The position numbers and the translations under genes are program-made. DNA of 64,000 nt, taken from Acidobacteriota bacterium (GTDB lineage Bacteria > Acidobacteriota > Vicinamibacteria > Vicinamibacterales > UBA2999). The DNA lies in NCBI GenBank assembly GCA_021731165.1, contig JAKFXY010000004.1, positions 640 through 64,639 of the forward strand, read 5' to 3'. The notes under the pieces were generated by a model. It ran no database searches and had not been told where the DNA came from. It saw only the letters and a list, made by a program, of their open reading frames with translations. Position 1 is the first letter of the stretch, and the number at the start of each line of letters is the position of its first letter. Below, in pieces: positions 49,846-63,301 of this stretch.

Positions 49846-50631
49846 ATGGAGTCTGACTTCCGCACACCATTGCTCGAGTGTTTCCGCCAGGGTGACGCAC
49901 CACGGGACGTTCGACTGCTCGCCGCGCAGGGTGGCCTTGCGCCGCGTGCGCACGAGCAACTCGGGCTGCTCATGATTCTCGTTGCCGATACGGATGAGGA
50001 GATCGCGCGTGCGGCGGAAGCGACGCTCCAGGCGATTGCGCCGGGGTCGATTGAGGGTGTGCTGGCTGGCTCGAACGTTCCCGCCGAGATGCGCGCCTTC
50101 TTCGAGGCGCGTGGGGTGACGCCGGCCGAGGCGCCTGCGACTGAGATCGAGGTGCCGCTGCTTGACACCGGCGGACCGACGGAGCCGGAGGCCGCAGAGG
50201 GGACCATCGATGGCGGCGCGGTGCGTCCAGGGATGACGGAGAAGATCGCGGCGATGAACGTACCCGAGCGACTGAAGCTCGCGATGAAAGGCACGAGGGA
50301 GGAGAGGGCGGTGCTCATCCGCGATCCCAACAGGATGGTCGCCGCCGCGGTCCTGAGCAGCCCGAAGCTGAGCGAATCCGAGGTCACGAGCATTGCCCGG
50401 ATGGGGAATGTGTCCGAGGAGATCCTGCGAATCATCGGCCACACGCGTGCGTGGATAAAGAACTACTCGACGTGTTTGGCGCTGGTGAAGAACTCGAAGA
50501 CACCGCTGGCGCTCTCGATGAACCTGCTCTCGCGGCTGAATGAGAAGGACTTGCGGATGCTCTCCATCGACCGCAACGTGCCAGATACGCTGCGCATTAC
50601 CGCGCGCAAGAAGATCACCGTCAACAAGTAG
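49846..50631 (+). CDS. Hypothetical helical-repeat protein
   Basis: Clean ORF with host-like codon use; HEAT/LRV-like repeats (LIRDPNRMVAAAVLSSPK, LVKNSKTP, LSIDRNVP). Confidence 0.75.
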   Translation: MESDFRTPLLECFRQGDAPRDVRLLAAQGGLAPRAHEQLGLLMILVADTDEEIARAAEATLQAIAPGSIEGVLAGSNVPAEMRAFFEARGVTPAEAPATEIEVPLLDTGGPTEPEAAEGTIDGGAVRPGMTEKIAAMNVPERLKLAMKGTREERAVLIRDPNRMVAAAVLSSPKLSESEVTSIARMGNVSEEILRIIGHTRAWIKNYSTCLALVKNSKTPLALSMNLLSRLNEKDLRMLSIDRNVPDTLRITARKKITVNK

Positions 50632-50655: not shown

Positions 50656-50949
50656 TCATCGTGGCGTCTTCGTTGCCCTTCCCTTCACCTGTGACCCTTT
50701 ACCTGTGACGCGGCCCTTCTGCCATTCCCGGTTCATCTCGGCAAGGCCCTCCATGTAGACGTGGGCTTTCGCCCGCTCTTCCTCGAGGGAGAGAGACTTG
50801 AGCAGCTCGAGGGCGTGCGCGAAGTCGTGGTCGAAGGTCTTCCTCGTCGTGGCGAAGTAAATCTTGCGGATCTCCGCGAGGGCGGCCTTGGCGTCAGGGG
50901 GGGGCTGCGTGAGTGAGCTCAGCGCCACGAAGCCAACGTGTTTACTCAC
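50656..50949 (-). CDS. Small hypothetical protein downstream of the GHMP kinase
   Basis: GTG start overlaps the kinase stop; amphipathic helices (LAEIRKIYF...VYMEGLAEMNREW). Confidence 0.65.
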   Translation of the reverse strand: MSKHVGFVALSSLTQPPPDAKAALAEIRKIYFATTRKTFDHDFAHALELLKSLSLEEERAKAHVYMEGLAEMNREWQKGRVTGKGSQVKGRATKTPR

Positions 50950-51931
50950 GCGTGAGCCCGTGGCGCTCAATATGGTAGTCGAGGACTCGCGCGCCGCCCG
51001 CTTCCAGTGCCGCGCGAATGGCATCCCGCTTTGCGGGAGGTCCATAGCAGAAGAGGCATCCACCGCCGCCTGCGCCGCAAACCTTGGCTGCGGTGGCACC
51101 AACAGCGGTTGCTCGCGCGATGAGCCCCTCGATCACTGGTGTCGTGACCCCCGGGGCCAGCTGTTTGCGGTTGTTCCACTCGGCGGCAATCGAGCGGCCC
51201 ACCGCATCCCAGTCGCCGCGCGCCAGGGCATCGCGCATGGTGGCCGCTGTGTCCCGGATGCGCTCGAAGCAGTCAAATATGTGGCGGTCGCCGTCGATGT
51301 GCTTCTTCGTGATCTCCCAGTTGTTCGTCCCGGAATTCCGAGGCTCACCCGTGTAGCACAAGACGATGCGCTGCTCGAGTGCTGCGGCGTCCACGTCGAG
51401 CGCCACGCGACGGACGCCGTCCACCTCGAGCTCGAGTGCGGCAATACCTCCGTAGAGTGCCGGCCGGTAGTCCTGCAGTCCGGTCGGCACGTTGATCGCT
51501 TGGGATTCGACGTTCATCGCCACTTGGAGCAACGCCTCGGGCTCATAGTGTATTCGCCGCCAGTCGGCCAGCGCCGCGCAGACAGCCACGCTCAAGGCCG
51601 AGGAACCGGCGATCCCTGCGCCGGCAGGCGACTCGCTCGAAGTCGTCAGGGTGATCCCGCGCGCCTCGAAGAAATGCGCCAGGAGGGACAGCAGCCGCAG
51701 CTCCTTCCGATCCCGCAACTCTCGCCAGTCGTCGGCTTCCACTGCCACGCCGGTGTCCTGTGATCGAATGACGATGCGGGTGTCGTCGCGGACATCGATG
51801 CGGGCCTTGGCCCGCAGGCTGATGGCGGCATTGAGCGTCTGCGCACCCGGATGGAACAAGTAGAGCGGCCAGATGTCGATCGTGCCGCCGGCGAGGTCAA
51901 TGCGGGTCGGCGCGGAAGTGACGATGGGCAC
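50942..51931 (-). CDS. GHMP-family sugar kinase (HddA-like)
   Basis: APTRIDLAGG, PAGAGIAGSSA (GHMP P-loop), GLQD, KVCGAGGGG. Start refined to GTG 51931. Confidence 0.88.
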   Translation of the reverse strand: MPIVTSAPTRIDLAGGTIDIWPLYLFHPGAQTLNAAISLRAKARIDVRDDTRIVIRSQDTGVAVEADDWRELRDRKELRLLSLLAHFFEARGITLTTSSESPAGAGIAGSSALSVAVCAALADWRRIHYEPEALLQVAMNVESQAINVPTGLQDYRPALYGGIAALELEVDGVRRVALDVDAAALEQRIVLCYTGEPRNSGTNNWEITKKHIDGDRHIFDCFERIRDTAATMRDALARGDWDAVGRSIAAEWNNRKQLAPGVTTPVIEGLIARATAVGATAAKVCGAGGGGCLFCYGPPAKRDAIRAALEAGGARVLDYHIERHGLTRE

Positions 51932-51937
51932 GAGGAG

Positions 51938-51996
51938 ATTATATGGAACCTCGGACGCGACAACGACAAGGCCCTTGAAACGGCACGCTCTATAAT
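51938..51996. promoter_or_regulatory. Divergent TATAAT -10 elements, each 6-7 nt before a GTG start (leaderless-type)
   Basis: Minus strand TATAAT (51943-51938) plus 6 nt then GTG 51931; plus strand TATAAT (51991-51996) plus 7 nt then GTG 52004. Confidence 0.65.
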
Positions 51997-52003
51997 GTCC
52001 GCT

Positions 52004-53089
52004 GTGTCCCTTCGTCGTGAGATCGGCCAGCTCCTCATCGGCAGCCTGCCTGGCACGACCATTCCTCCCGAAGCGCGATCGCTGGCGCGTGAGTTTCAGC
52101 TCGGCGGCGTCATCCTCTTCTCGCGCAACATCGAGGTGCCGGAGCAGGTGGCCGAGCTCGCGCACGACGTGCAGTCGCTCGCGTCGGGGCTGCCGTTGTG
52201 GGTGAGTGTCGATCAGGAAGGGGGGCGGGTAGCGCGGCTTCGCGCGCCGTTCACGGTGTGGCCGCCGATGGGGGTGCTCGGACGCAGCGGCGACCCGGCG
52301 CTCGCTGAACGCTTCGCACGCGCCTTGGCCGCTGAGCTGAAGGCGGTCGGCATTACCCTCGACTACGCCCCGGTCCTCGATATCCACACCAACCCAAGGA
52401 ATCCGATCATCGGCGATCGTGCTCTGTCGGACCAGGCGCAGATGGTGGCGACGCTCGGTGCCGCCATCGTGCGCGGCCTGCAGGAGAGCGGCGTGGCCGC
52501 CTGCGGCAAGCATTTCCCCGGGCATGGCGATACATCGGTAGACTCGCACCTCGACCTCCCGCTCGTCGAGCATCCTCCCGATCGAATTCGGCGCGTCGAG
52601 TTCGTCCCGTTCCGCGAGGCGATCCGCCAGGAAGTGGCCTTTATCATGACGGCCCACGTCCTGGTCCCGTCGCTCGATGAGGAGAGGCCTGCCACGCTTT
52701 CTCCGCGTATCGTCCGGGCCCTGCTCCGGGAGGAGCTCGGCTACGACGGCGTCATCCTGAGCGACGACCTCGAGATGAAGGCCATCGCAAAGACATACAC
52801 GGTGCCCGAGGCCGCCGTCGAGGCGATTGGCGCCGGTTGCGACGGGATTCTGATCTGCAGTGGCGACCTCGACGTGCAGGCCGCGATGCTCGAAGCGCTG
52901 GTGCATGCGGTCGAGGATGGCGCGATTCCCTTCAAGCGCGTGGAAGATGCGCTGACGCGGCAGCGCCGGGCCAAGGAACGGTTTCTCACGACGCTCGCCA
53001 CGGCGCCTCCGCGCGCCGCCGCGCTGCGCGAGGTGATCGGCTGCGATCAACACCGGCGCATTGCCGAGGAGATGGGGCGGTTTCTGTGA
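52004..53089 (+). CDS. nagZ: Beta-N-acetylhexosaminidase NagZ (GH3)
   Basis: GGVILFSRN, VDQEGGRV, KHFPGHG....DSH, MTAHV, SDDLEM. Start is GTG 52004 or ATG 51995. Confidence 0.94.
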   Translation: MSLRREIGQLLIGSLPGTTIPPEARSLAREFQLGGVILFSRNIEVPEQVAELAHDVQSLASGLPLWVSVDQEGGRVARLRAPFTVWPPMGVLGRSGDPALAERFARALAAELKAVGITLDYAPVLDIHTNPRNPIIGDRALSDQAQMVATLGAAIVRGLQESGVAACGKHFPGHGDTSVDSHLDLPLVEHPPDRIRRVEFVPFREAIRQEVAFIMTAHVLVPSLDEERPATLSPRIVRALLREELGYDGVILSDDLEMKAIAKTYTVPEAAVEAIGAGCDGILICSGDLDVQAAMLEALVHAVEDGAIPFKRVEDALTRQRRAKERFLTTLATAPPRAAALREVIGCDQHRRIAEEMGRFL

Positions 53090-54015
53090 TGAAGCCCCGT
53101 GCCCTCAAGCCAGGCGATCGGATTGCGGTCGTGTCGCCGGCCAGCCCGTTCTCACGCGAGGCGTTCGAGAAGGGGGTCGGGGAGCTGCGCACGCTTGGCT
53201 ATGTGCCGGTCTATCACGACTCGGTCTTCGATCGTGCGCTCGGTGGGATGACGTCCGGGCCAGCGGAGTTGCGCGCTGCCGCTTTCGTCCGTGCCTGGTC
53301 GGATCCCTCGATCGCGGCGCTCATCGCGGTTCGAGGCGGACACGGGAGCGTGCACATGCTGCCGCACTTGGAGGGATGGGATCCGCGCCAGAACCCGAAG
53401 CTCTTCATCGGGTACAGCGATAACACGTCCATTCTTGCATGGCTCACGACGCAATGCGGGATCACCGCCTTGCACGGCCCGATGCTCGACGGCCGGCTCG
53501 CGCGGGGCACCGATGGGTACGACCGTACTTCTTTCTCCAGGCTGATTCAGGGCAGCGGTGCAGGACTCGTCATGGCGCCCGAGGGGCTCTCCGTCGTGAG
53601 CGACGGGGAGGCGTCTGGCCCTCTTCACGGTGGCACGCTGACCCTGCTCGCCGCCTCGATGGGCACGCCCTACGCGTTCGCCCCTCCGGATGGCAGCGTG
53701 CTCTTCCTCGAAGACGTCAACGAGCGGCCGTACAAGATCGACCGCCTTCTGATGCAGCTTCGACTCGCCGGTGTCGTCGGACGTGCACGCGCCATCGTCT
53801 TTGGCGAAATGCGCGGTTGCGACGAGCCAGGCGGAGAGCTGAAGCTTCGCGACCTGCTACCCGAGCTGCTCGAGGACTTCGAAGGTCCGGTGCTGTTCGG
53901 TTTCCCCTCAGGGCACACGACTGGGCCGTGTTGGTCTCTTCCGTTCGGGGTGCGGGTGACGGTGAAGACGTCTCCGGCGCCGTCGGTGGCGATCGAGGAA
54001 TCACCTGTTGAATAG
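53089..54015 (+). CDS. ldcA: LD-carboxypeptidase (S66 family)
   Basis: KPGDRIAVVSPAS, RGGHG, GYSDNT, HGPM, FLEDVNE, SGH. Confidence 0.92.
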   Translation: MKPRALKPGDRIAVVSPASPFSREAFEKGVGELRTLGYVPVYHDSVFDRALGGMTSGPAELRAAAFVRAWSDPSIAALIAVRGGHGSVHMLPHLEGWDPRQNPKLFIGYSDNTSILAWLTTQCGITALHGPMLDGRLARGTDGYDRTSFSRLIQGSGAGLVMAPEGLSVVSDGEASGPLHGGTLTLLAASMGTPYAFAPPDGSVLFLEDVNERPYKIDRLLMQLRLAGVVGRARAIVFGEMRGCDEPGGELKLRDLLPELLEDFEGPVLFGFPSGHTTGPCWSLPFGVRVTVKTSPAPSVAIEESPVE

Positions 54016-55462
54016 GAATCAGCGGATCTATCTGATCGGAATCTGCGGCACCGCGATGGCCACGCTGGCGGCCCTTCTCAAGCGGCGGGGGTGCGAGGTG
54101 CGCGGCTCCGATCAGAATGTCTATCCGCCGATGAGCGACTTCCTCGCGGCCGAGGGCATTGGGGCGATATCAGGCTACGCGGCCGAGCACATCACGAGCG
54201 ACATCGACCTCGTCGTCGTTGGCAACGCCATCTCGCGTGGAAATCCTGAGCTCGAGGCCGTGCTCGAGCGGAAGGTCCGTTACTGCTCGTTGCCGGAGGC
54301 GGTGCGCGATCATTTTCTGTGGGGCGCGCGATCGATCGTTATAGCCGGCACGCACGGCAAGACCACGACCACGTCGCTGGCCGGGTGGCTGCTCACACAC
54401 GCCCACATGGATCCCACCGTGCTGGTGGGGGGGATCGCGCTCAACTTCGGGGAGCACGGGTCGAGTTATCGCGTCGGCGGTGGACGCGACTTCGTGATTG
54501 AAGGCGACGAGTACGACAGCGCGTTCTTCGACAAGACCGCCAAGTTTCTCAAGTATCTGCCGGACGTGGCCGTGATCAACAACATCGAGTTCGATCACGC
54601 CGATATCTATCCGGATCTCGACGCCGTGCGGTTGGCGTTCCGCCGGCTGGTGAATCTGGTGCCGCGCAGCGGTCTGCTCCTCCTCGGCGCCGACAGCCCG
54701 CATGCGGCGACGCTGCGGCCCAACGCGGTCAGCCCGGTCGAGACGTTCGGGTTCTCTGAGGGTGCGGACTGGCGGGCCGATGACCTCGAGCCTGTCGATG
54801 GAATGACCCGGTTCCAGGTGCGCCGCGGTGGCGAGTTGTTCGGGCTGTTTGAATCGCCGCTCCTCGGCGCTCACAATGTGCGCAACGCTCTGGCGGCGAT
54901 CGCGGTAGGGAGCTTTGTCGGCGTGGGGGCCTCGGAGCTCGCGGCCGGTCTCCGCGCGTTTCGAGGCATCAAGCGCAGGCTGGAAATCGTCGGCGTCGCA
55001 GGAGGCGTGACGGTGCTGGACGATTTCGCGCACCATCCGACCGCGGTCCACGAGACACTGGCGGCACTGCGAATCGGTTACCCCTCTCGCCGGATCTGGG
55101 CGGTATTCGAGCCGCGCTCTGCTTCGTCGTGCAGACGCGTCTTTCAGGACGATTTCGCGCGGGCATTCGTGGACGCGGATGAGGTCGTGATCGCCGGCCT
55201 GTTTCGTTCGTCGTTGCCCGAGTCGGAGCGGCTCTCGGTCGAGCAGCTCGTGACGGACATCGAGACGAGCGGCCGGCGCGCACGCCACATCCCCGAGGTC
55301 AGCGACATCGTCAGCACGATCGTCGCGGAGCGGCGAGATGGCGACATCGTCGTGCTGATGTCGAATGGCGGCTTCGGCGGGATCCACGGAAAGCTCCTGC
55401 AGGCGCTGGCCGTGTCGGCCCCTGGCGCCGACCCCGGTTCCAAAATCGGAATGGCGCGGTGA
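54008..55462 (+). CDS. mpl: Murein peptide ligase (UDP-MurNAc:L-Ala-gamma-D-Glu-mDAP ligase)
   Basis: GICGTAM, GSDQNVYPPMS, GTHGKTTT, EGDEYDSAFFDK, EFDHADI, DDFAHHPT, MSNGGFGG. Confidence 0.94.
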   Translation: MNRNQRIYLIGICGTAMATLAALLKRRGCEVRGSDQNVYPPMSDFLAAEGIGAISGYAAEHITSDIDLVVVGNAISRGNPELEAVLERKVRYCSLPEAVRDHFLWGARSIVIAGTHGKTTTTSLAGWLLTHAHMDPTVLVGGIALNFGEHGSSYRVGGGRDFVIEGDEYDSAFFDKTAKFLKYLPDVAVINNIEFDHADIYPDLDAVRLAFRRLVNLVPRSGLLLLGADSPHAATLRPNAVSPVETFGFSEGADWRADDLEPVDGMTRFQVRRGGELFGLFESPLLGAHNVRNALAAIAVGSFVGVGASELAAGLRAFRGIKRRLEIVGVAGGVTVLDDFAHHPTAVHETLAALRIGYPSRRIWAVFEPRSASSCRRVFQDDFARAFVDADEVVIAGLFRSSLPESERLSVEQLVTDIETSGRRARHIPEVSDIVSTIVAERRDGDIVVLMSNGGFGGIHGKLLQALAVSAPGADPGSKIGMAR

Positions 55463-57147
55463 GCGCCAGTCTCCGAACGTCCGCACCGATAATTCTGGAC
55501 GCCGGTGACTCTGCACTGGTCATGGAGTTGGGTGAGACGATCGACGAGCAGGTGAACGCGCGTGCAGTGGCGGCAGCTGCGTGGCTGCGTGAGGCGCATC
55601 TTTCCGGCGTTCGGGATGTCGTGCCGACCTACGCGGCCGTAGCCGTCTTCTTCGATCCACTTACAACGGATGCTGAGGCTGTACGGCAGGCCATGGTGCG
55701 CGCCCGCGAAGCATCTCCGTGCGAGGCTGATGGGCCGATCATCGAGATACCGGTGGCATACGGGGGTGAGGCAGGCCCTGATCTTGTGGAGGTGGCGCGG
55801 TGGGCCGGGATGAGCCCGGACGAGGTGATCGAGCGACACGCGTCGAGGACGTATCGTGTGTTCATGCTCGGGTTCCTTCCTGGATTCGCGTACATGGGCA
55901 CCGTGGAGGAGGCCATTGCCGCGCCCCGGCTGGCGACGCCGCGGGTGCGCGTGCCGGCGGGATCCGTAGGCATTGCCGGAGGCCAGACCGGTATTTACTC
56001 TACGGAGTCGCCGGGCGGCTGGCAGATCATTGGACGCACTCCTGTGAGCGTCTTCGATGCGATCCGGACCCCCGCGTCGATGTTCGCGCCAGGTGATCGC
56101 GTGAGGTTCGTGTCCGCAGGTGCCGCACCGGCGGTTCGCCAGGAGGCGCCCGACGAAGACGTGCGCAACGCCATCGCCGGGCGGCCGTTTGCCGGCCGTC
56201 CAGAGATGGCGGGCCGCCGCTCCATTACCGTCGTCAGGCCCGGGCTCTTCACCACGATCCAGGATGGCGGCCGCTGGGGTTACCAGGCCCAGGGCGTCCC
56301 CGTGGCTGGTCCGATGGATCCCGTCGCGCACCGTGTCGCGAATGCGCTCGTCGGTAACCCGGCTGACGCTGCCACCCTTGAGGCCACGATCCTCGGGCCT
56401 GAATTGCGACTTGAGACCGAGGCGATGCTGGGTGTCGCTGGAGCGGATCTGGGCGTGACGCTCGACGGTGCGCAGTTGCCGCCGGGCCACGCCGCGCGCG
56501 GTGCGGCTGGCAGCGTCCTGCGGTTCAGCCGGCGCGTTCATGGCACGCGTGCGTATGTGGCGTTCGACGGAGGTGTGGACGTGCCGCCCATACTCGGCAG
56601 CCGTGCTACGTACGTACCAAGCGGGCTGGGTGGGATCGACGGGCGCGCACTCAAGGTCGGCGACGTGCTGCCACTGCGAAGCGCGGACCGGAGTCCCGCC
56701 GGAAGTCAGGATCGGGGTCTGACCTCAGTGATGGATCGGCTCAAGGCCGGCGGGGCCCGTGTGCGAGTAATCGCCGGGCCGCAGAGCAGCTTCTTCGAGC
56801 CGGGGACGCTGGAATCGCTCCAGCGCTCGCGGTTCACGATTTCGCCGCAGTCCGATCGCATGGGATACCGGCTGACCGGTGCGCGGATTCCGCGCGCCTC
56901 GCGCGAGATGATCTCCGGCGCGACATTCACCGGGGCGCTGCAGGTTCCTGCCTCTGGCGACCCGATTCTGCTCATGGCAGACCGCCAGGTCACGGGCGGA
57001 TATCCGCAGATTGCCGTCGTGATCACCGCCGATCTTCCAGTGGTTGGTCAGCTTGCCCCTGGCGACTGGGTCGAGTTCGAGATATGCACTCGCGCGGAAG
57101 CCATAGCCGCCCTTGCGGAACAGGAGCAGTGCTTGGTTCGTGGCTGA
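55459..57147 (+). CDS. Fused 5-oxoprolinase subunits B and C (KipI/KipA; allophanate hydrolase subunit 1/2 domains)
   Basis: PxpB part: GDSAL, VVPTY, GFLPGFAYM, PAGSVGIAG.QTGIY...SPGGWQIIGRT. PxpC part: TTIQDGGR, GSRATY, SDRMGYRL, GGYPQI. Confidence 0.88.
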   Translation: MSASLRTSAPIILDAGDSALVMELGETIDEQVNARAVAAAAWLREAHLSGVRDVVPTYAAVAVFFDPLTTDAEAVRQAMVRAREASPCEADGPIIEIPVAYGGEAGPDLVEVARWAGMSPDEVIERHASRTYRVFMLGFLPGFAYMGTVEEAIAAPRLATPRVRVPAGSVGIAGGQTGIYSTESPGGWQIIGRTPVSVFDAIRTPASMFAPGDRVRFVSAGAAPAVRQEAPDEDVRNAIAGRPFAGRPEMAGRRSITVVRPGLFTTIQDGGRWGYQAQGVPVAGPMDPVAHRVANALVGNPADAATLEATILGPELRLETEAMLGVAGADLGVTLDGAQLPPGHAARGAAGSVLRFSRRVHGTRAYVAFDGGVDVPPILGSRATYVPSGLGGIDGRALKVGDVLPLRSADRSPAGSQDRGLTSVMDRLKAGGARVRVIAGPQSSFFEPGTLESLQRSRFTISPQSDRMGYRLTGARIPRASREMISGATFTGALQVPASGDPILLMADRQVTGGYPQIAVVITADLPVVGQLAPGDWVEFEICTRAEAIAALAEQEQCLVRG

Positions 57148-58231
57148 GCCACTCGTGCCGACTGGGCAGGTCGACTTGAGGCCGCTGACGACTCTTGGGG
57201 TCGGCGGGCGGGCGCGCTGGTATGTCAGGGCCAGTTCCGTGGAGGAGGTCGCGACGGCGTACGCCTGGGCGCAGGACCGCAACCTGGAGGTGTTCGTGCT
57301 GGGGGGCGGGAGCAACCTCGTGGTGGCTGACGAGGGGTGGCCGGGCCTTGTCCTCCATGTGGGAATCAACGGTGCGACATTCTGGGGCGACGGGACCGAC
57401 ACCTTCGTCACGGCGGGCGCGGGAGGCACCTGGGATGATCTGGTCTTGGCCGTCGTGTCGCGTGGCCTTGCTGGAGTCGAGTGCTTGTCGGGCATTCCGG
57501 GCACTGTCGGGGCAACGCCGCTGCAGAACGTCGGGGCGTACGGCCAGGAGGTGGCTGGAGTGATCGATTCTGTGACGGCATTCGATCGCGCCACCGGCGA
57601 GACGCTGAGGATCCCGTCGGACGAGTGTGGGTTTGGCTACCGAATGAGCCGCTTCAAGGGACGCGACGCCGGCCGGTTCGTGGTGTGTCATGTGACGCTC
57701 CGTGTTCGTCCCGGGTTCCCCACGGTGACGTACCCCGATCTCGTCGATTACGTGGAGCGACATGCGATCATGTCGCCCGGGGTCGGCGATGTTCGCGACG
57801 CGGTAATCGCAATCCGGCGCCGGAAGGGCATGGTCCTCGATGCGGCCGATCCGGATACCCGCAGCGTCGGGTCCTTCTTCGTGAACCCGGTAATCAAGGA
57901 CGAGGTCTACCATCGGATTGCCGCCGGTGGAGGGATACCGTCGTTTGCTGCAGGAGCCGGGTTCGTGAAGATTTCCGCGGCATGGCTCATCGAACGTGCC
58001 GGCTTCGGGCGCGGGTTCGGAGCTGGTGGGGCGGCGCTCTCCACGAAGCACCCGCTGGCGATTACCAATCGTGGCGGTGCCTCGGCGCGTGAGGTTGTTG
58101 CGCTCGCGGCGCGTATCAAGCACCAGGTGGCCGACCGCTTCGGTATCTGGCTTCGGCCGGAGCCGCTTTTCGTCGGCTTCGGGGATGACGCCGATGTGGC
58201 GTACTTGCAGGCGCACGACGCTGCTGGATGA
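57140..58231 (+). CDS. murB: UDP-N-acetylenolpyruvoylglucosamine reductase
   Basis: TTLGVGG, LGGGSNL, GIPGTVG, QNVGAYG, FGYRMSRFK, SVGSFFVNP, KHPLAITN. Confidence 0.95.
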   Translation: MAEPLVPTGQVDLRPLTTLGVGGRARWYVRASSVEEVATAYAWAQDRNLEVFVLGGGSNLVVADEGWPGLVLHVGINGATFWGDGTDTFVTAGAGGTWDDLVLAVVSRGLAGVECLSGIPGTVGATPLQNVGAYGQEVAGVIDSVTAFDRATGETLRIPSDECGFGYRMSRFKGRDAGRFVVCHVTLRVRPGFPTVTYPDLVDYVERHAIMSPGVGDVRDAVIAIRRRKGMVLDAADPDTRSVGSFFVNPVIKDEVYHRIAAGGGIPSFAAGAGFVKISAAWLIERAGFGRGFGAGGAALSTKHPLAITNRGGASAREVVALAARIKHQVADRFGIWLRPEPLFVGFGDDADVAYLQAHDAAG

Positions 58232-58247
58232 ATGCTACAGGAGATGA

Positions 58248-59507
58248 ATGTCAACACTGCTGATTGAGGGCGGCCATCGTCTCGAAGGACGAGTCGCGGT
58301 TGAGGGGAACAAGAACGCCGCGCTCCCCCTATTGGCGGCGTGCCTGCTGACGGAAGACGAGTGCGTGCTGACCAACGTACCGCGCATCGGCGACGTCGAG
58401 GTGATGGCGCGGCTGCTGCTCGATCTCGGTGCCGAAGTCGAAGGCATCGGCGGCACCACACTCCGGATCCGAACGCCGAGGGTGACCGGGCACGTACCCG
58501 ATCGCGCGCTGGTCGGCCGTCTTCGCGGTTCCGTACTGCTGCTCGGGCCGCTGCTCGCGCGGGCGGGGAAGGCGCGGCTCGCGCCGCCGGGCGGCGACTT
58601 TCCGGCGCGGCGTTCGATCTCCACGCACCTCGACGCGCTCTTCGCGCTGGGTGCGCGCGAGGTCGCGGGGCCGGACCACGCGGTTGAGGCACCGGCCGGG
58701 CTCACGGGCGCGTCGATGTATCTCTTCGAGGCGTCTGTCACCGGCACGGAGACCGCGCTCCTCGCGGCGGCCAGCGCCAGAGGTGTCACGGAGATCCGCC
58801 ACGCCGCCACCGAGCCGCACGTCGTGGAGCTCTGCCAGTTCCTGACCAAGATGGGCGCCGGTGTCACGGGCATCGGCAGTTCGACGCTGCGCGTCGAGGG
58901 GACGTCACGCCTGCGCGGCGCGCAGCACCACATCAACGGGGACTACATCGAGGCCGGCAGCTGGGCGGTGGTTGGGGCGATCACCGGCGGAGAGATCGCC
59001 ATTGAGGGGGCGCGAGAGGAAGACATCGAGGTTGTGGCCGCCGTACTGACGCGCATGAGGGTCGACTGCGGCATGCGCGACGGCGTCTTCGAGGTGAAGC
59101 CATCGAAGCCGAAGGCCATCAAGCGGATTACGACCGGACTGTGGCCGGCCTTCCCGAGCGACTTGGTCAGCCTCGTGACTGTGCTGGCGACCCAGGCCGA
59201 AGGACGGACGCTGGTGCACGACTGGATGTACGAGCTTCGCCTGTTCGCACTCGAACAAATGAGCGGCATGGGCGCTGACATGTTCCTCGCCGACGCCCAC
59301 CGCATCATCGTCACCGGGCGTACACCGCTGCGCGGCGGCCGCTTGCTCGATAGCCGCGATCTCCGCTCGGGGATGTCGCTGATTGCCGCCGGTCTCGCCG
59401 CGGATGGACAGACGCGCGTCACGCCGCTCGAGACCGTCGAACGCGGCTACTCGCAGCTGGTGGATCGCCTCCAGGCGCTTGGCGCGAAGGTTGCGAAGGT
59501 GGACTGA
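58248..59507 (+). CDS. murA: UDP-N-acetylglucosamine 1-carboxyvinyltransferase (Asp117 variant)
   Basis: GNKNAALP, LRGSVLLLGPLLAR, PGGDFPARR, SVTGTE, EPHV, FPSDL, DLRSG, ERGY. Confidence 0.94.
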   Translation: MSTLLIEGGHRLEGRVAVEGNKNAALPLLAACLLTEDECVLTNVPRIGDVEVMARLLLDLGAEVEGIGGTTLRIRTPRVTGHVPDRALVGRLRGSVLLLGPLLARAGKARLAPPGGDFPARRSISTHLDALFALGAREVAGPDHAVEAPAGLTGASMYLFEASVTGTETALLAAASARGVTEIRHAATEPHVVELCQFLTKMGAGVTGIGSSTLRVEGTSRLRGAQHHINGDYIEAGSWAVVGAITGGEIAIEGAREEDIEVVAAVLTRMRVDCGMRDGVFEVKPSKPKAIKRITTGLWPAFPSDLVSLVTVLATQAEGRTLVHDWMYELRLFALEQMSGMGADMFLADAHRIIVTGRTPLRGGRLLDSRDLRSGMSLIAAGLAADGQTRVTPLETVERGYSQLVDRLQALGAKVAKVD

Positions 59508-59520
59508 TGGAGCCGCGGCT

Positions 59521-61323
59521 CTAGCGGGCCGGTGCGCCACCTGAGGGCGGCGGTACGACCGGAACAATCGGGGCAGCGCCAGGGCGCTGCGCTGGTGGTT
59601 GTTGCGCCTCAGGTGGGGTCGGCAGCTGCAAGGGAGGCTGGATCGGGAGGTCAATGACCGACGCCGCTGGATCGGTCCCGACGCGGAACGGCCGCAGATC
59701 GGACTCCGAAAGGTCCAGCACGCGAATGATGTGCGGCGTCAGCGTGAGGACGATGTCGGTTTCCTGCGTTTCGCGCTTGGTGTGCGCGAAGAGCCTGCCG
59801 ACAAACGGGATATCGCTCAAGCCGGGAATCCCCTGGACGACCTTTCGCTCGTCGTCACGAATCAGGCCGGCGAGCAGGTTCGTCTCTCCGTCGCGCAGTC
59901 GGATCACCGTATTGATGGCGCGGTTGCCGAACGTGGGCAGCCCTCCGAACCCGGTGCCGGAGATGCTGCTGACTTCCACTCGTACCGCCAGCGACACCTC
60001 GTCGTCATGGTGGGTGCGCGGCGTGATGTCGATATTCACGCCGATGTTCTCGTAGTTGAACGAAGTAATTGGCTGCTGGTTCACTCCGCCGGTGGCGATG
60101 GGGGAGAAGGTCGTGACCGGCACCGGTACGCGCTCGCCGAACCGCGCCTGCGAGGTCTGGCCCTCGGATGTCCGGAGCTGGGGGTTGGCCAGCGTTCGTG
60201 TGTTGCTGTCTGTCTTCAAGAGCCGGTAGAACAGGCCCGGCAGGTTCGTCATCAGGATGTCAGACTGCGCGAGGTTTCTGACGTCGCGTAGAGTGAGCCC
60301 TTCCGAGTTGGCATCGGCCGCACCGTTGATCCCAGGGGAGCCTGGCGAGGCGAGCTGGAGGCCGTACTCGCTGAGCCTCGTGCGGTCAACTTCCAACAGC
60401 TCAACATCGATGACGACCTCGGGCCGGGCCTTGTCGATCGCCGAGATGAGCTTGCCGGCGGCCGCGATGCGTTCAGGCGTGTCCTTGATCGAGATGGCGT
60501 TGGTGGCCGTCGTCGGCGCGATGCGTCGGCTGTCGATCACGATCCGGAGCAGGTCGATCGTCTCCTTGAGGTCGGCGTTGCTCAGATAGAACGTGCGGAT
60601 GATCTCTTCCTCGTATTCGCGGCGCTTGGCGGGATTGTCGGGGATCACCGTAATCGTCCGCTGCGCCGTTACCTTATAGAAGTTCCTGGTCGCCTGCGAG
60701 ATCGATGTCAGCGCCTCGTCCAGGGCGGCGTTTCGGAGGTCGATCGTCAGCGGTTCCTCGCGGAACGTCGGGTCGAAGACGATATTGACGTTTGCAAAGC
60801 GCGCGATCGCCGTATACACGTCGCGTGAACCCGCGCCGCGAAATATGAGCGACGAAGGGAGCCGCACATCAGCGGGCAGGTCCATGCCTGGAGGGCCCAT
60901 GGTCCGGGAACGCTCGATGAGCGATTCGAGCCGTGTCTGGCCTTCGCGTGCGACAGCGACCTTGGCCCGCTGCTGATTGCGTACATCGCGGAGGAGCCCG
61001 TCAATATCGCCGCTGGCGGGGTTCAACTCCGACGCCACCTGCAGCTCAACGAGGGCCTCGTCCAGTTTTCCGGTTGATGCCAGGCGGCGTCCACGGGAGA
61101 AGTGATCCTGTGCGGCCCGCATCTTGGCGCGGTCGAGGGCCTGGCGCACTGCCCGGTTGTCGGGCTGCGCCTTGAGCACCTTGGTGTACTCGATGACGGC
61201 GCGGTCGTAGTCCTGGGCCTGCTCGGCGCGCTGGCCGGAACGGATCGCGCCGCCAGTGGCGCATCCGGCCAGGGTCAAGGCGAGCGCCGCCATGGGCGCA
61301 AATCGGCTAATTTGGTGTGCCAT
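59521..61323 (-). CDS. Lipoprotein-type secretin (GspD/PilQ family) with N-terminal TPR
   Basis: Lipobox LAGC, TPR helices, secretin N domain, LANPQLRT, G.RVP, NIGVNIDITP, LRDGETNLLAGLI, IPGLSDIPFVGRLF, LTPHII. Confidence 0.9.
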   Translation of the reverse strand: MAHQISRFAPMAALALTLAGCATGGAIRSGQRAEQAQDYDRAVIEYTKVLKAQPDNRAVRQALDRAKMRAAQDHFSRGRRLASTGKLDEALVELQVASELNPASGDIDGLLRDVRNQQRAKVAVAREGQTRLESLIERSRTMGPPGMDLPADVRLPSSLIFRGAGSRDVYTAIARFANVNIVFDPTFREEPLTIDLRNAALDEALTSISQATRNFYKVTAQRTITVIPDNPAKRREYEEEIIRTFYLSNADLKETIDLLRIVIDSRRIAPTTATNAISIKDTPERIAAAGKLISAIDKARPEVVIDVELLEVDRTRLSEYGLQLASPGSPGINGAADANSEGLTLRDVRNLAQSDILMTNLPGLFYRLLKTDSNTRTLANPQLRTSEGQTSQARFGERVPVPVTTFSPIATGGVNQQPITSFNYENIGVNIDITPRTHHDDEVSLAVRVEVSSISGTGFGGLPTFGNRAINTVIRLRDGETNLLAGLIRDDERKVVQGIPGLSDIPFVGRLFAHTKRETQETDIVLTLTPHIIRVLDLSESDLRPFRVGTDPAASVIDLPIQPPLQLPTPPEAQQPPAQRPGAAPIVPVVPPPSGGAPAR

Positions 61324-61969
61324 CGGTGATGACGTCGACGCCGCGCGGAATACGAAACGCAAACTCCTTATCGGACAACCCCAGGTTTTCCTTCAGATTG
61401 GTGAAGATGAGGGTTGATTCGCCCCCCTGCCGGTCCCGCGTCGTCAGGGCGCGCCACGTGAGGGTGGCCGGGTCTACGGCAATCACGAGGTACTCGTACT
61501 GGGGTTCCTCCCGCCTCGGAATGAGCTTGAGAGCGAGGGTGCCGGGCACCGGCGATTCAACGTACGACGCGGTAAAGTCGCGTCCGATGTCTCCCTTGCC
61601 AGCCAGGAAGAGGGCCGGCGTCGTAGCCTGATCCTCCGTGGGGACCGGGGTGACAATCACTTGTCTGTCGAGCGGGATGTACGAGTAGACCTTTACGCCG
61701 TCGGAGACGAACTCCTTCTTCTCCGGAGCCATGTAGATAAACCGCATCCTCCCGGGCTTCTTCACCGAGACCGTCCCCTGTTCCTTGGTCTGCGTACGGA
61801 GCGCCCCGCCGCGATAGGTGTGTACGAAATCGGCGGAGAAATCGCGTACCCCTTGGTACCGCTGCTGGAGCGAGCGGGCAAGCGCTTCGGCCGAGGGCCG
61901 GGTCTGCGCCGAAACGAGGCCACCGGAGAGAGCGAGGACCAAGGCGAAGAACGGCAGACGGCTCACCAT
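61307..61969 (-). CDS. lolA: Outer-membrane lipoprotein carrier protein LolA
   Basis: Signal peptide, FSADF.H.Y, KKPGRMR..Y, VSDG.KVY.Y, TPALFL.G, F.F.IP.GVDV. Confidence 0.9.
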   Translation of the reverse strand: MVSRLPFFALVLALSGGLVSAQTRPSAEALARSLQQRYQGVRDFSADFVHTYRGGALRTQTKEQGTVSVKKPGRMRFIYMAPEKKEFVSDGVKVYSYIPLDRQVIVTPVPTEDQATTPALFLAGKGDIGRDFTASYVESPVPGTLALKLIPRREEPQYEYLVIAVDPATLTWRALTTRDRQGGESTLIFTNLKENLGLSDKEFAFRIPRGVDVITDGTPN

Positions 61970-62014: not shown

Positions 62015-63301
62015 TCACATTCTGGCGCGTTTGCGTGCGACGAATGCCCGGACCTCATCCACACCACGCGCATTCAGTACATGGCGCGGCTCAACCCAGC
62101 CGCGGCGTGCCGTGCCTGTGCCGAAGCCCATCTGCCGGCCCAGCCATTCCGCACGATGCGCGTCGCTGCTGACGGTGAGTGTGACTCCGGCCAGAGCGGC
62201 CAGACGGGCCACTGAGCCGTCCATGTCCAAGTGGCCGGGCGCACCGTCGATCTCCATCGCCGTCCCGGTGGAGACAGCCGCGTCGAACAGCCGCGCAAAG
62301 TCGAGATCGTAGCCGCTTGATCGCGCGGGCGAACGGTTGGCGGGATGGGTAATGACGTTCACGAGCGGGTGATGCATGGCCCGGAGGTAACGCCCCGTCA
62401 GGCTCGCACCGTCCTGGCCGGCCTCGTCGTGGAGCGATGCCAGCACGATGTCGAGGTCTTGGAGCAGCGAATCATCAAAGTCGAGACTACCATCCGGCAT
62501 GATGTCGACCTCGACGCCGTGCAGAATCTGGATACCCACCACGCGCAGTCGCAGCGACTCGATTTCGGCTTTCTGCCGCGCCACATCCGCCACGGCGAGC
62601 GTACGTGACGCTGCGGCACGTTCGGAATGGTCCGTGATGGCCACGTACTCGTAGCCGAGCTGCTGGGCTGCGCCCACCATATCCTCGAGTGAATCTCGGC
62701 CGTCACTCCAACTGCTGTGCACGTGGAGGTCTCCCCGGATATCGCTCTCATAGACCAGACGGGGCAGCCGCTCCCGGAGCGCCGCGTCGATCTCATCAGT
62801 TCCATGGCGAAGCTCGGGAGGAATATGTGGCAGGCCAAGCAGCTCGTAGAAGTGGGCCTCCGTCCGGCACTCGACGACAGTCCTTCCGCGGAGGAGCGCG
62901 GGGGAATCGAACGCAAGTCCATGGTCCACGGCTTTTGCGCGTAGCAGGGCGAGGTGATCGTCTGCACCCGTGTGCCAAGCGAGGGCGCTGCCCGCGCTCT
63001 CAGGCGTTGCCAGGTGCAGGGTCAGAGCGCCGCGCTCGGTCGTGAGGCTGCGCGCGCGGGATGACGTCGCCGAGGTGGTTGTCACGATCGATAACGTCGT
63101 GAACCCTTTCAGGACTTGTGCGTGCTTCGATTCCGGGGCGATGACGAGGAGGGCGACGTCTTCCAGCTCTGGAGCAAATCGTCGAAGACCGCCGACGTGG
63201 TGGAGCTCATCGAAGGGCAGCCCAGCGCGGCGAGCCTCACGCGCGACTGTCGATGCGAGGAGGTGCGCGCGTCCGAGGGAAATGCGTGAGGAGAAGGACA
63301 C
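62015..63301 (-). CDS. N-terminally truncated, polymerase-degenerate PolX fused to a PHP domain
   Basis: PolX palm/thumb remnants (GGLRR, HTG...H, LGLPHIPPELR) and intact PHP motifs (GDLHVHS.WSDG, ITDHS, GVEVDI, HP, SSDAH). Confidence 0.85.
   Translation of the reverse strand: MSFSSRISLGRAHLLASTVAREARRAGLPFDELHHVGGLRRFAPELEDVALLVIAPESKHAQVLKGFTTLSIVTTTSATSSRARSLTTERGALTLHLATPESAGSALAWHTGADDHLALLRAKAVDHGLAFDSPALLRGRTVVECRTEAHFYELLGLPHIPPELRHGTDEIDAALRERLPRLVYESDIRGDLHVHSSWSDGRDSLEDMVGAAQQLGYEYVAITDHSERAAASRTLAVADVARQKAEIESLRLRVVGIQILHGVEVDIMPDGSLDFDDSLLQDLDIVLASLHDEAGQDGASLTGRYLRAMHHPLVNVITHPANRSPARSSGYDLDFARLFDAAVSTGTAMEIDGAPGHLDMDGSVARLAALAGVTLTVSSDAHRAEWLGRQMGFGTGTARRGWVEPRHVLNARGVDEVRAFVARKRARM

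Follow-up and report, generated by a model that had tools for sequence, protein, structure and literature searches.

The window analysed here is a 64,000-nt stretch from an Acidobacteriota bacterium of the order Vicinamibacterales, corresponding to positions 640-64639 of contig C4 in a metagenome-assembled genome (MAG) of 3.0 Mb in 161 contigs, 86.7% complete and with a GC content of ~65%. It contains a gene for a kinase of the GHMP superfamily, located on the minus strand and divergent from a plus strand peptidoglycan operon that begins with nagZ. Few groups of soil bacteria are more abundant than the Acidobacteriota, and, to our knowledge, turnover of their cell envelope is almost unstudied. 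A preliminary description, made from the letters of the window, presented the kinase as a candidate 1-kinase for the MurNAc (N-acetylmuramic acid) and GlcNAc (N-acetylglucosamine) released during peptidoglycan recycling. We find that the kinase belongs to a large unnamed clade with the active site residues of anomeric sugar kinases, and our preferred reading, to which we give an even chance, is that it is an orphan anomeric sugar-1-kinase, which salvages an envelope-derived hexose or hexosamine and is loosely linked to the nagZ operon.

The features of the locus are listed below (ORF, open reading frame; aa, amino acids). Genes were called as the longest non-overlapping ORFs combined with Pfam matches, because GC3-based calling was not discriminating at 65% GC, and a few neighbour ORFs may be mis-called.

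50942-51931, minus strand: GHMP kinase, 329 aa, GTG start; PF00288 (GHMP_kinases_N) 52.5 bits, PF08544 (GHMP_kinases_C) 51 bits
51932-51994, intergenic: divergent spacer, 63 bp between the kinase GTG and the presumed nagZ ATG
51938-51943, minus strand: TATAAT box, 6 nt 5' of the kinase GTG; likely promoter of a leaderless transcript
50656-50928, minus strand: small ORF, 89 aa, 13 nt past the kinase stop; no Pfam or NCBIfam family
51995-53089, plus strand: nagZ, GH3 beta-N-acetylglucosaminidase; PF00933 289 bits, NF003740 261 bits vs cut-off 207
53089-54015, plus strand: ldcA-like LD-carboxypeptidase (S66); PF02016 and PF17676 above cut-offs, NF008424 111.7 bits vs 378
54008-55462, plus strand: mpl, UDP-MurNAc:tripeptide ligase; TIGR01081 406.3 bits vs cut-off 388.7
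55459-57147, plus strand: pxpB-pxpC fusion (5-oxoprolinase B/C-like, KipI/KipA-like); PF02682, PF02626
57113/57140-58231, plus strand: murB; NF010478 381.9 bits vs cut-off 231
58248-59507, plus strand: murA; TIGR01072 398.7 bits vs cut-off 392.7

The nagZ stop codon TGA (53087-53089) and the ldcA start codon ATG (53089-53091) overlap by 1 nt, ldcA and mpl by 8 nt, and mpl and the pxpB-pxpC fusion by 4 nt. Three candidate start codons were found for murB (TTG at 57113, GTG at 57140 and GTG at 57155), the first two of which overlap the stop codon of the fusion (57145-57147), and the murB stop is followed by a 16-nt gap before the murA start. The preliminary description had given this gene order and the same junctions, including the probable overlap of the fusion with murB; its 72-bp spacer, in contrast, becomes 63 bp (51932-51994) with the start codons chosen here. 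NagZ, Mpl, PxpB, MurB and MurA exceed curated NCBIfam cut-offs, and LdcA matches at the domain level only. The mpl gene product remains under the cut-off of the murC model (315.2 bits vs 335.1), and the fusion protein exceeds those of TIGR00370 (204.8 vs 145.55) and TIGR00724 (282.5 vs 230.2); against the PxpC equivalog model it obtains 252.5 bits vs a cut-off of 500, so that PxpC is supported at the domain level only. The family scores of NagZ, Mpl, MurB and MurA bear out the earlier assignment of the plus strand genes to peptidoglycan recycling, and, as far as sequence can tell, nagZ-ldcA-mpl-pxpBC-murB-murA is a genuine, tightly packed peptidoglycan recycling and precursor operon. In itself, this operon is ordinary.

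The kinase clade, its active site and its fold

Both GHMP domains of the 329-aa protein score above their cut-offs, which places it in the GHMP superfamily, and it consists of kinase domains only. With regard to the superfamily's motif II (of the Pro-x-Gly-Ser-Gly-Leu-Gly-Ser-Ser-Ala type) and Gly-rich motif III, PAGAGIAGSSA and CGAGGGGC are present in its translation and are invariant in the clade alignment. The best NCBIfam model was that of HddA (NF049969), with 131.3 bits vs a cut-off of 600, far from equivalog level; the Fkp model (NF009948) gave 93.4 bits vs 721, and there is no fused fucose-1-phosphate guanylyltransferase domain. Because the fold is GHMP, and not the aminoglycoside phosphotransferase-like (APH) fold of AmgK (NF045759/NF045698), membership of the AmgK family is ruled out while an analogous function is not. 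The nearest solved relatives are the HddA-type kinases 3k85, 4n3o and WcbL 4usk (~105-114 bits), followed by Fkp. A HMMER library search with the kinase recovered 9416 representatives at E<=0.001 and 640 clusters at E<=1e-30, and clade members score 200-430 bits against each other, many aligning over their full length at 35-60% identity. These scores indicate that the kinase is a member of a large unnamed clade, which is sister to HddA/WcbL and to the fucokinase domain of Fkp and is not HddA. Its distribution is mainly in Acidobacteriota, with named members also in MAGs of Nitrospinota and Bdellovibrionota. Protein Atlas clusters carry the label 'GHMP kinase family protein' only, JGI names many clade members as HddA, and the clade is probably both uncharacterised and mis-annotated.

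Over 28 aligned members, R10, D12, D19, S110, Q153, D154, N204, W205, R255 and the stretch C285-G-A-G-G-G-G were invariant. In a profile alignment, R10, D19, Q153, D154 and S110-111 fall on R13, D22, Q162, D163 and S118-120 of WcbL, and the four residues R10, D19, Q153 and D154, which mark the anomeric sugar-1-kinases of the HddA/WcbL/Fkp branch, are found in 28/28 sequences. Mutants of WcbL show that R13, D22, Q162, D163 and residues of the serine motif are required; D163 is described as the catalytic base for O1, R13 as acting on the transition state and on ATP, and the sugar as being bound by D22 and Q162 (PMC4691232). The AlphaFold (AF2) model of the kinase, with a confidence score (pLDDT) of 95.4, has as its best folds in the PDB WcbL (TM-score (TM) 0.92) and the kinase part of Fkp (TM 0.86-0.89). 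WcbL-like residues combined with a WcbL-like fold point to a kinase designed for phosphorylation of a pyranose at its anomeric hydroxyl. Given its homology to WcbL, D154 would deprotonate the sugar O1 for attack on the gamma-phosphate of ATP, R10 would stabilise the transition state, and D19 and Q153 would hold the sugar. The earlier naming of the gene as an HddA-like GHMP kinase of the anomeric type is upheld by its domains, WcbL residues and fold, with the proviso that it falls outside HddA proper.

Some Acidobacteriota have a version of the kinase that carries an additional charged domain of ~290 aa at its C-terminus (P0161, P0205, P0207, P0226), which has no match to a Pfam family. At the fused-kinase loci (L138:6986-8812, L140:6992-8860 and L141:6425-8824), a peptidase of the M23/Csd3 type precedes the kinase. 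In the genome to which the window belongs, this domain had a single, weak match (E 2e-5, 21% identity), located at the C-terminal end of an 809-aa HerA/DUF87-like ORF on C35.

Genomic context and co-occurrence of the kinase

Kinase loci were viewed in three samples, namely Set A, the best 80 of roughly 600+ genome loci carrying the kinase; 20 + 20 loci from other Acidobacteriota families; and a metagenome set of the best 80 loci, seeded with kinase members of the Nitrospinota and Bdellovibrionota types. Coverage of neighbours over these ~200 loci was uneven, with Pfam annotation of 79 and targeted tblastn, run without heptose queries, for the others. Genomes, loci, contigs and families are given by our own G, L, C and f numbers where they need to be told apart.

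In Set A, nagZ was found upstream of the kinase on the opposite strand in 72 of the 80 loci, and at a distance of <=400 nt in 56 of those. All 72 loci are of the Vicinamibacterales type, with a kinase identity of 54-85%, and in most of them the rest of the operon follows nagZ. The spacer between kinase and nagZ in relatives is often merely ~30-40 nt. At 16 of the 72 loci the two genes are separated by inserts of 563-4436 nt, and Pfam annotation of four of these detected a transposase, Nramp, MacB/FtsX and a heavy-metal-binding protein. In the distant genome G014, nagZ is again divergent and adjacent, with a kinase 45% and a NagZ 39% identical to those of the window, while seven loci of Set A, from Blastocatellia, Pyrinomonadales, Chloracidobacterium and similar groups, have no nagZ beside the kinase. 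The adjacency is an order-level synteny, shared with one distant lineage and lost in most other classes; checked as the preliminary description had asked, its conservation reaches as far as the order and G014.

When the window was aligned with 23 Vicinamibacterales loci, TATAA followed 6-8 nt on by GTG was at least 80% conserved. The location of a TATAAT box so close to the kinase GTG, conserved across the order, suggests a leaderless message, and the kinase mRNA is probably of this kind. No shared operator-like motif besides this box was conserved in the spacer in the same alignment, and a generic promoter and terminator scan found nothing, with no full -35/-10 site. A second perfect TATAAT hexamer in the spacer (51991-51996, plus strand) overlaps the presumed nagZ ATG.

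The usual gene 3' of the kinase encodes a PolX-type polymerase with a PHP domain, and the small ORF usually comes after PolX. PolX was located downstream of the kinase at a distance of <=800 nt in 45 of the 80 Set A loci, and matches to the small ORF (tblastn, E<=1e-5) were present in 59, directly 3' of the kinase in eight. The preliminary description had cast the small ORF as an accessory factor of the kinase; since it also adjoins PolX in three kinase-less genomes (L152-L154), it belongs with PolX and that suggestion is abandoned. The kinase, usually PolX, and then the small ORF make up a transcription unit separate from the nagZ operon. A 261-aa ORF without a Pfam or NCBIfam family (49846-50631, plus strand) is convergent to the small ORF, and its synteny extends to 48 of 80 related loci and to the kinase-less genomes. 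In the window, a PolX-like stretch (~62027-63265, minus strand) is located ~11 kb away and shares 37.5% identity with the PolX usually found after the kinase.

Outside the order, other neighbours were found. A DedA/VTT membrane protein is encoded 5' of the kinase and on the same strand in 5/5 annotated Blastocatellia-type loci and in 12 of the 80 metagenome loci, and two Blastocatellia-type loci have a divergent ROK kinase (Pfam). DedA proteins are linked to undecaprenyl phosphate recycling, and this neighbour could be another envelope connection. The DedA/VTT loci seen were L078-L085, L172, L181, L184, L213, L215, L216, L223, L227, L235, L237, L238 and L242. In three of the 80 metagenome loci (L214, L218, L220) a fusion of an AmiE-like protein of the beta-lactamase fold with NamZ_N and NamZ_C is convergent to the kinase. 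Of 40 sampled loci, five have an M23/Csd3-type peptidase immediately upstream, three of these five with the fused ~290-aa domain, and a PMT_2 glycosyltransferase is upstream in 2 of 20, with BacA near one. A CE4 polysaccharide deacetylase lies downstream in 3 of 5 sampled loci of family f29 (L248, L250, L252; Pfam), a sulfatase-TPR gene adjoins the kinase on the side opposite to CE4 (L249-L252 and L266; Pfam), and GH113 is downstream in L267. In family f31, a nucleotidyltransferase whose best solved relatives are GalU (114 bits) comes right after the kinase in all three sampled genomes, with YceG/MltG near. No partner is universal, yet the kinase repeatedly has envelope and glycan enzymes as neighbours, with hydrolases of peptidoglycan fragments among them, across several unrelated lineages. 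The kinase neighbours in the ~200 loci included no identified equivalog of gmhA, gmhB or hddC, within the coverage stated above (Pfam on 79, tblastn without heptose queries on the rest); the preliminary description had noted no gmhA or hddC in the window.

Co-occurrence was counted in 251 Acidobacteriota genomes, including three flagged as unpublished (G024, G049, G152) that enter these counts only. The thresholds were E<=1e-45 for the kinase at ortholog level (our choice), E<=1e-45 for NagZ-like, E<=1e-25 for AmgK-like and E<=1e-40 for NagA matches, and the TIGR01081 cut-off for Mpl. The odds ratios given here are descriptive only, and overstate association because the sampled genomes are related and not independent. 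The kinase was present in 118 of the 251 genomes. Counted as both present, kinase only, partner only and neither, it occurred with NagZ-like proteins in the pattern 82/36/54/79 (odds ratio 3.3) and with Mpl in the pattern 59/59/38/95 (odds ratio 2.5); as yardsticks, Mpl vs NagZ gave 3.7 and AmgK-like vs NagZ 3.9. The co-occurrence with nagZ and mpl that had been expected was observed, in this descriptive sense. The expected anti-correlation with amgK was not: kinase and AmgK-like proteins were positively associated (58/60/35/98, odds ratio 2.7), and none of 31 genomes of the order, of which 27 are at least 90% complete, yielded AnmK, whether kinase-bearing or not. Eight genomes of family f27 have Mpl without the kinase, and in G034 and G064 the neighbour of nagZ is an AmgK-like gene, not the GHMP kinase.

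Two further observations concern the operon and its downstream flank. The pxpB-pxpC fusion was found by tblastn in 60 of 80 related loci; pxpA is not in the operon, and a PxpA-like gene was found on another contig (C10:1704-2456). G084 has a pxpB-pxpA-pxpC set of its own, separate from the operon and directly 3' of the GHMP kinase (L137:4576-6985). We know of no obvious textbook role for a 5-oxoprolinase-like or KipI/KipA-like enzyme within a peptidoglycan recycling operon, and the product of the fusion may act on a recycled peptide containing D-glutamate. Convergent to murA is a gene for a TPR-bearing secretin (GspD/PilQ-like; 59521-61362, minus strand), which is syntenic in many relatives.

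Salvage genes elsewhere in the genome and the role of the kinase

In whole-genome family searches, none of anmK, murQ, nagK, amgK, murU, gmhA and hddC had a match on the contig of the window, as the preliminary description had noted for the window itself, and several of this set are encoded elsewhere in the genome. Two of the loci are as follows.

G000:C81:4602-6772, minus strand: adjacent AmgK-like and MurU-like genes, flanked by a CYTH protein and a xylose-isomerase-like TIM-barrel protein
G000:C22:12732-14815, plus strand: MurQ (322 bits vs cut-off 302), then an AmiE/PBP4B-like gene of the beta-lactamase fold

For the AmgK-like kinase of the APH fold (C81:4602-5672, 356 aa), the best NCBIfam model was AmgK, at 153.6 bits vs 550. 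The MurU-like protein is a 349-aa NTP_transferase whose tail is a left-handed beta-helix, and it scored 117.9 bits vs 250 with the MurU model and best with that of mannose-1-phosphate (Man-1-P) guanylyltransferase (149 vs 440). Both members of the pair are under the equivalog cut-offs, and we treat them as putative AmgK-like and MurU-like proteins; the MurU-like nucleotidyltransferase sought by the preliminary description exists on C81, and fails to reach the level at which it could be called MurU. All 22 genomes sampled from the order and class have AmgK-like genes. Since the pair is in the genome, there is no vacancy for the GHMP kinase to fill, and the premise that the freed sugars need a kinase is not supported. 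The genome also encodes a NamZ-like protein on C2, NagA (227.4 bits vs 225.65), GlmU and GalU, and IspE is its sole other GHMP kinase. No kinase of the AnmK, ROK or BadF type was found in the assembled 86.7% of the genome; of 31 genomes of the order, 25 have ROK kinases, one of which adjoins nagA in G098. A kinase acting on C1 does not supply MurNAc-6-phosphate for MurQ.

Heptose genes are also present. A GmhA-like gene (199.5 bits vs 209.45) is flanked by a weakly C39-peptidase-like ORF and further ORFs, with kup and thiC one gene beyond; three RfaE-domain-I-like kinases score 333, 297 and 286 bits vs 345, and a GmhB-like gene adjoins one of them; and a Man-1-P guanylyltransferase/HddC-like nucleotidyltransferase on C61 obtains 136 bits vs 300 with the HddC model. 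The RfaE-domain-I-like and GmhB-like genes, together with the GmhA-like gene, indicate that the ADP-heptose route is covered without the GHMP kinase.

In the reading that we prefer, the kinase would phosphorylate a neutral hexose or an N-acetylhexosamine freed in envelope glycan turnover, and the sugar-1-phosphate would be reactivated by a UTP-dependent pyrophosphorylase of the GlmU or GalU type, encoded elsewhere in most lineages. By established family functions, NagZ would remove GlcNAc from muropeptides, LdcA would trim tetrapeptides to tripeptides, Mpl would rejoin the tripeptide to UDP-MurNAc, and MurA and MurB would make UDP-MurNAc from UDP-GlcNAc. Our guess is that GlcNAc is the leading substrate candidate in this organism, being the most economical because NagZ frees it and GlmU, MurA, MurB and Mpl return it to UDP-MurNAc-tripeptide; the flow would then be from GlcNAc to GlcNAc-1-phosphate, through GlmU to UDP-GlcNAc, and on through MurA/MurB to Mpl. 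This reading is favoured by the WcbL-like active site and fold, by the distinctness of the clade, by the envelope and glycan neighbours in different lineages, by the co-occurrence with NagZ-like proteins, and by the other genes that cover the heptose route. A role in peptidoglycan recycling is possible, with a tie to the nagZ operon that would be loose and dispensable and would not make the kinase an obligatory step of the pathway.

Several findings weigh against even this loosely coupled salvage role. In three genomes of the same order that have no kinase match (G178, G218, G238), the gene for the 261-aa ORF, the small ORF and PolX face an intact nagZ-ldcA-mpl-pxpBC-murB-murA, which means that the operon stands without the kinase and that the divergent unit may or may not begin with the kinase. 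Six genomes sampled from this order or class have no kinase (G086, G146, G178, G218, G238, G059), and five of the six keep mpl (all except G146). A NagZ-like match at E<=1e-45 is absent from 36 of the 118 kinase-bearing genomes, and in family f29 the kinase is present in 17 of 17 sampled genomes while NagZ-like, AmgK-like and NagA proteins are present in 0 of 17, and no TIGR01081 match reaches the Mpl cut-off. In other lineages the kinase stands, for the most part, among genes with no relation to peptidoglycan, the neighbours including an Rce1-like protease (22 of 80 metagenome loci), MlaC (5 of 80), PolX, thymidine kinase, ribonucleotide reductase, AccA and ScpAB, and a nucleotidyltransferase shares an operon with the kinase in family f31 only. 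Kinase and NagA show no complementarity phylum-wide (34/84/42/91, odds ratio 0.88). The tally in the order and class (kinase/NagA +/+ 9, +/- 7, -/+ 6, -/- 0) had looked suggestive, and replacement of the NagK/NagA route by a GlcNAc-1-phosphate route was dropped as evidence on the strength of the phylum-wide ratio. Finally, the computations reported here do not tell GlcNAc, MurNAc, N-acetylgalactosamine (GalNAc) and neutral hexoses apart.

A narrower version of the preferred reading, which we put forward tentatively and as distinctly less probable, is that the clade is a GHMP-fold N-acetylhexosamine 1-kinase for GlcNAc and/or MurNAc, a third non-homologous solution beside AmgK and NahK; a GlmU- or GalU-like partner would return amino sugars freed by NagZ, NamZ and CE4 enzymes to UDP-sugars, bypassing NagK, NagA, GlmS and GlmM. 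We are about equally doubtful of the reading that stays closest to the preliminary description once its small-ORF accessory is removed, in which a dedicated, non-homologous MurNAc/GlcNAc 1-kinase is coupled to the nagZ operon and replaces AmgK. Its appeal lies in the divergent arrangement with nagZ in 72 of 80 loci and again in G014, in the AmiE-NamZ fusion beside the kinase in L214, L218 and L220, in the odds ratio of 3.3 with NagZ, and in the kinases that were looked for and not found: AnmK in any of 31 genomes of the order, and AnmK, ROK or BadF-type kinases in the assembled 86.7% of this genome, though MurQ and NagA are present. Against it, the AmgK-like/MurU-like pair is present here and AmgK-like genes are present in all 22 sampled genomes of the order and class, ROK kinases occur in 25 of the 31 order genomes (beside nagA in G098), and AmgK-like proteins accompany the kinase (odds ratio 2.7) where replacement would have them avoid it. 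The gene adjoining nagZ in G034 and G064 is AmgK-like, G178, G218 and G238 keep a complete operon with no kinase, and the small ORF, directly after the kinase in 8 of 80 loci, stays with PolX in kinase-less genomes.

A housekeeping role unrelated to envelope sugars, for example on a non-sugar hydroxyl substrate, with the nagZ adjacency as inherited synteny, seems unlikely to us. It would account for neighbours that vary greatly across the phylum, for co-transcription with the DNA repair polymerase PolX within the order, for the inserts of 563-4436 nt that part kinase and nagZ in 16 of 72 loci, and for kinases in f29 genomes without any recycling marker tested; it sits poorly with the invariant counterparts of the sugar-binding residues D22 and Q162 of WcbL, with the GalU-like partner in the same operon in f31, and with peptidoglycan exo-glycosidase neighbours in three synteny groups, for which chance is improbable by a rough estimate that is not a test. 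Least probable of all, and by our judgement very improbable, is the automatic annotation as HddA, the D-glycero-alpha-D-manno-heptose-7-phosphate 1-kinase of the GDP-heptose pathway. HddA is indeed the top NCBIfam model, the top PDB relatives are HddA-type, JGI gives many members this name, and the genome has the GmhA-like gene (199.5 vs 209.45) and the HddC-like nucleotidyltransferase of C61 (136 vs 300). Against this, the equivalog score is 131 bits vs 600, members of the clade score 200-430 bits with each other vs ~105-114 bits with solved HddA-type kinases, and family residues differ (D12, W21-P22, the S200/N204/W205 block and C285); the RfaE-domain-I-like and GmhB-like genes suffice for the ADP-heptose route, and the neighbour survey, with its Pfam coverage of 79 loci and tblastn without heptose queries elsewhere, identified no gmhA, gmhB or hddC equivalog.

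Whichever substrate applies, the picture of a missing kinase is corrected, since the genome has AmgK-like, MurU-like, NamZ-like and NagA proteins and MurQ with an AmiE-like neighbour, and the heptose-kinase label, which comes from one source, is argued against by the present evidence. If the kinase is an amino-sugar 1-kinase, it would represent a new enzyme family in peptidoglycan and amino-sugar salvage; if another hexose is the substrate, a salvage step for envelope or exopolysaccharide sugars would be defined.

Comparison with known systems

In the literature searched, with subscription journals outside the search, no link was drawn between GHMP kinase and peptidoglycan recycling, AmgK or N-acetylhexosamine 1-kinase. 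In the Pseudomonas-type AmgK/MurU shortcut, MurNAc and GlcNAc are described as phosphorylated at the anomeric position and then uridylylated (PMC5371407, PMC5371409, PMC13691567); AmgK has the APH fold, whereas the window kinase has the GHMP fold. Salvage routes independent of AmgK/MurU are described as still emerging, for example in mycobacteria (PMC13691567).

A second point of comparison is Bacillus subtilis. This organism phosphorylates MurNAc through a phosphotransferase system (PTS). Its NamZ-AmiE-NagZ-MurQ set, as described in PMC8054146, resembles what we find in that the present genome has NagZ, a NamZ-like protein and MurQ with an AmiE-like gene, and the kinase adjoins an AmiE-NamZ fusion in other lineages. 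The difference is that the B. subtilis system has no GHMP kinase.

The closest likeness is to WcbL/HddA (4usk, 4n3o, 3k85) and to Fkp (5yys, 9iip, 9iit). With the former, the kinase shares the GHMP fold (TM 0.92 to 4usk), ~26-30% identity, and counterparts of R13, D22, Q162, D163 and the serine-rich motif II; it differs in that its clade has RIDLAGG with Asp12, W21-P22, the S200/N204/W205 block and C285, and has envelope-hydrolase neighbours in place of identified heptose-pathway neighbours. With Fkp, it shares the N-terminal motif R-I-D-L/M-A-G-G, with Asp at position 12, and the fold (TM 0.86-0.89), and both can be viewed as salvage 1-kinases that feed an NDP-sugar pyrophosphorylase. In Fkp the pyrophosphorylase domain is fused to the kinase, whereas the window kinase has no such domain, and a separate GalU-like partner accompanies its clade in family f31 only.

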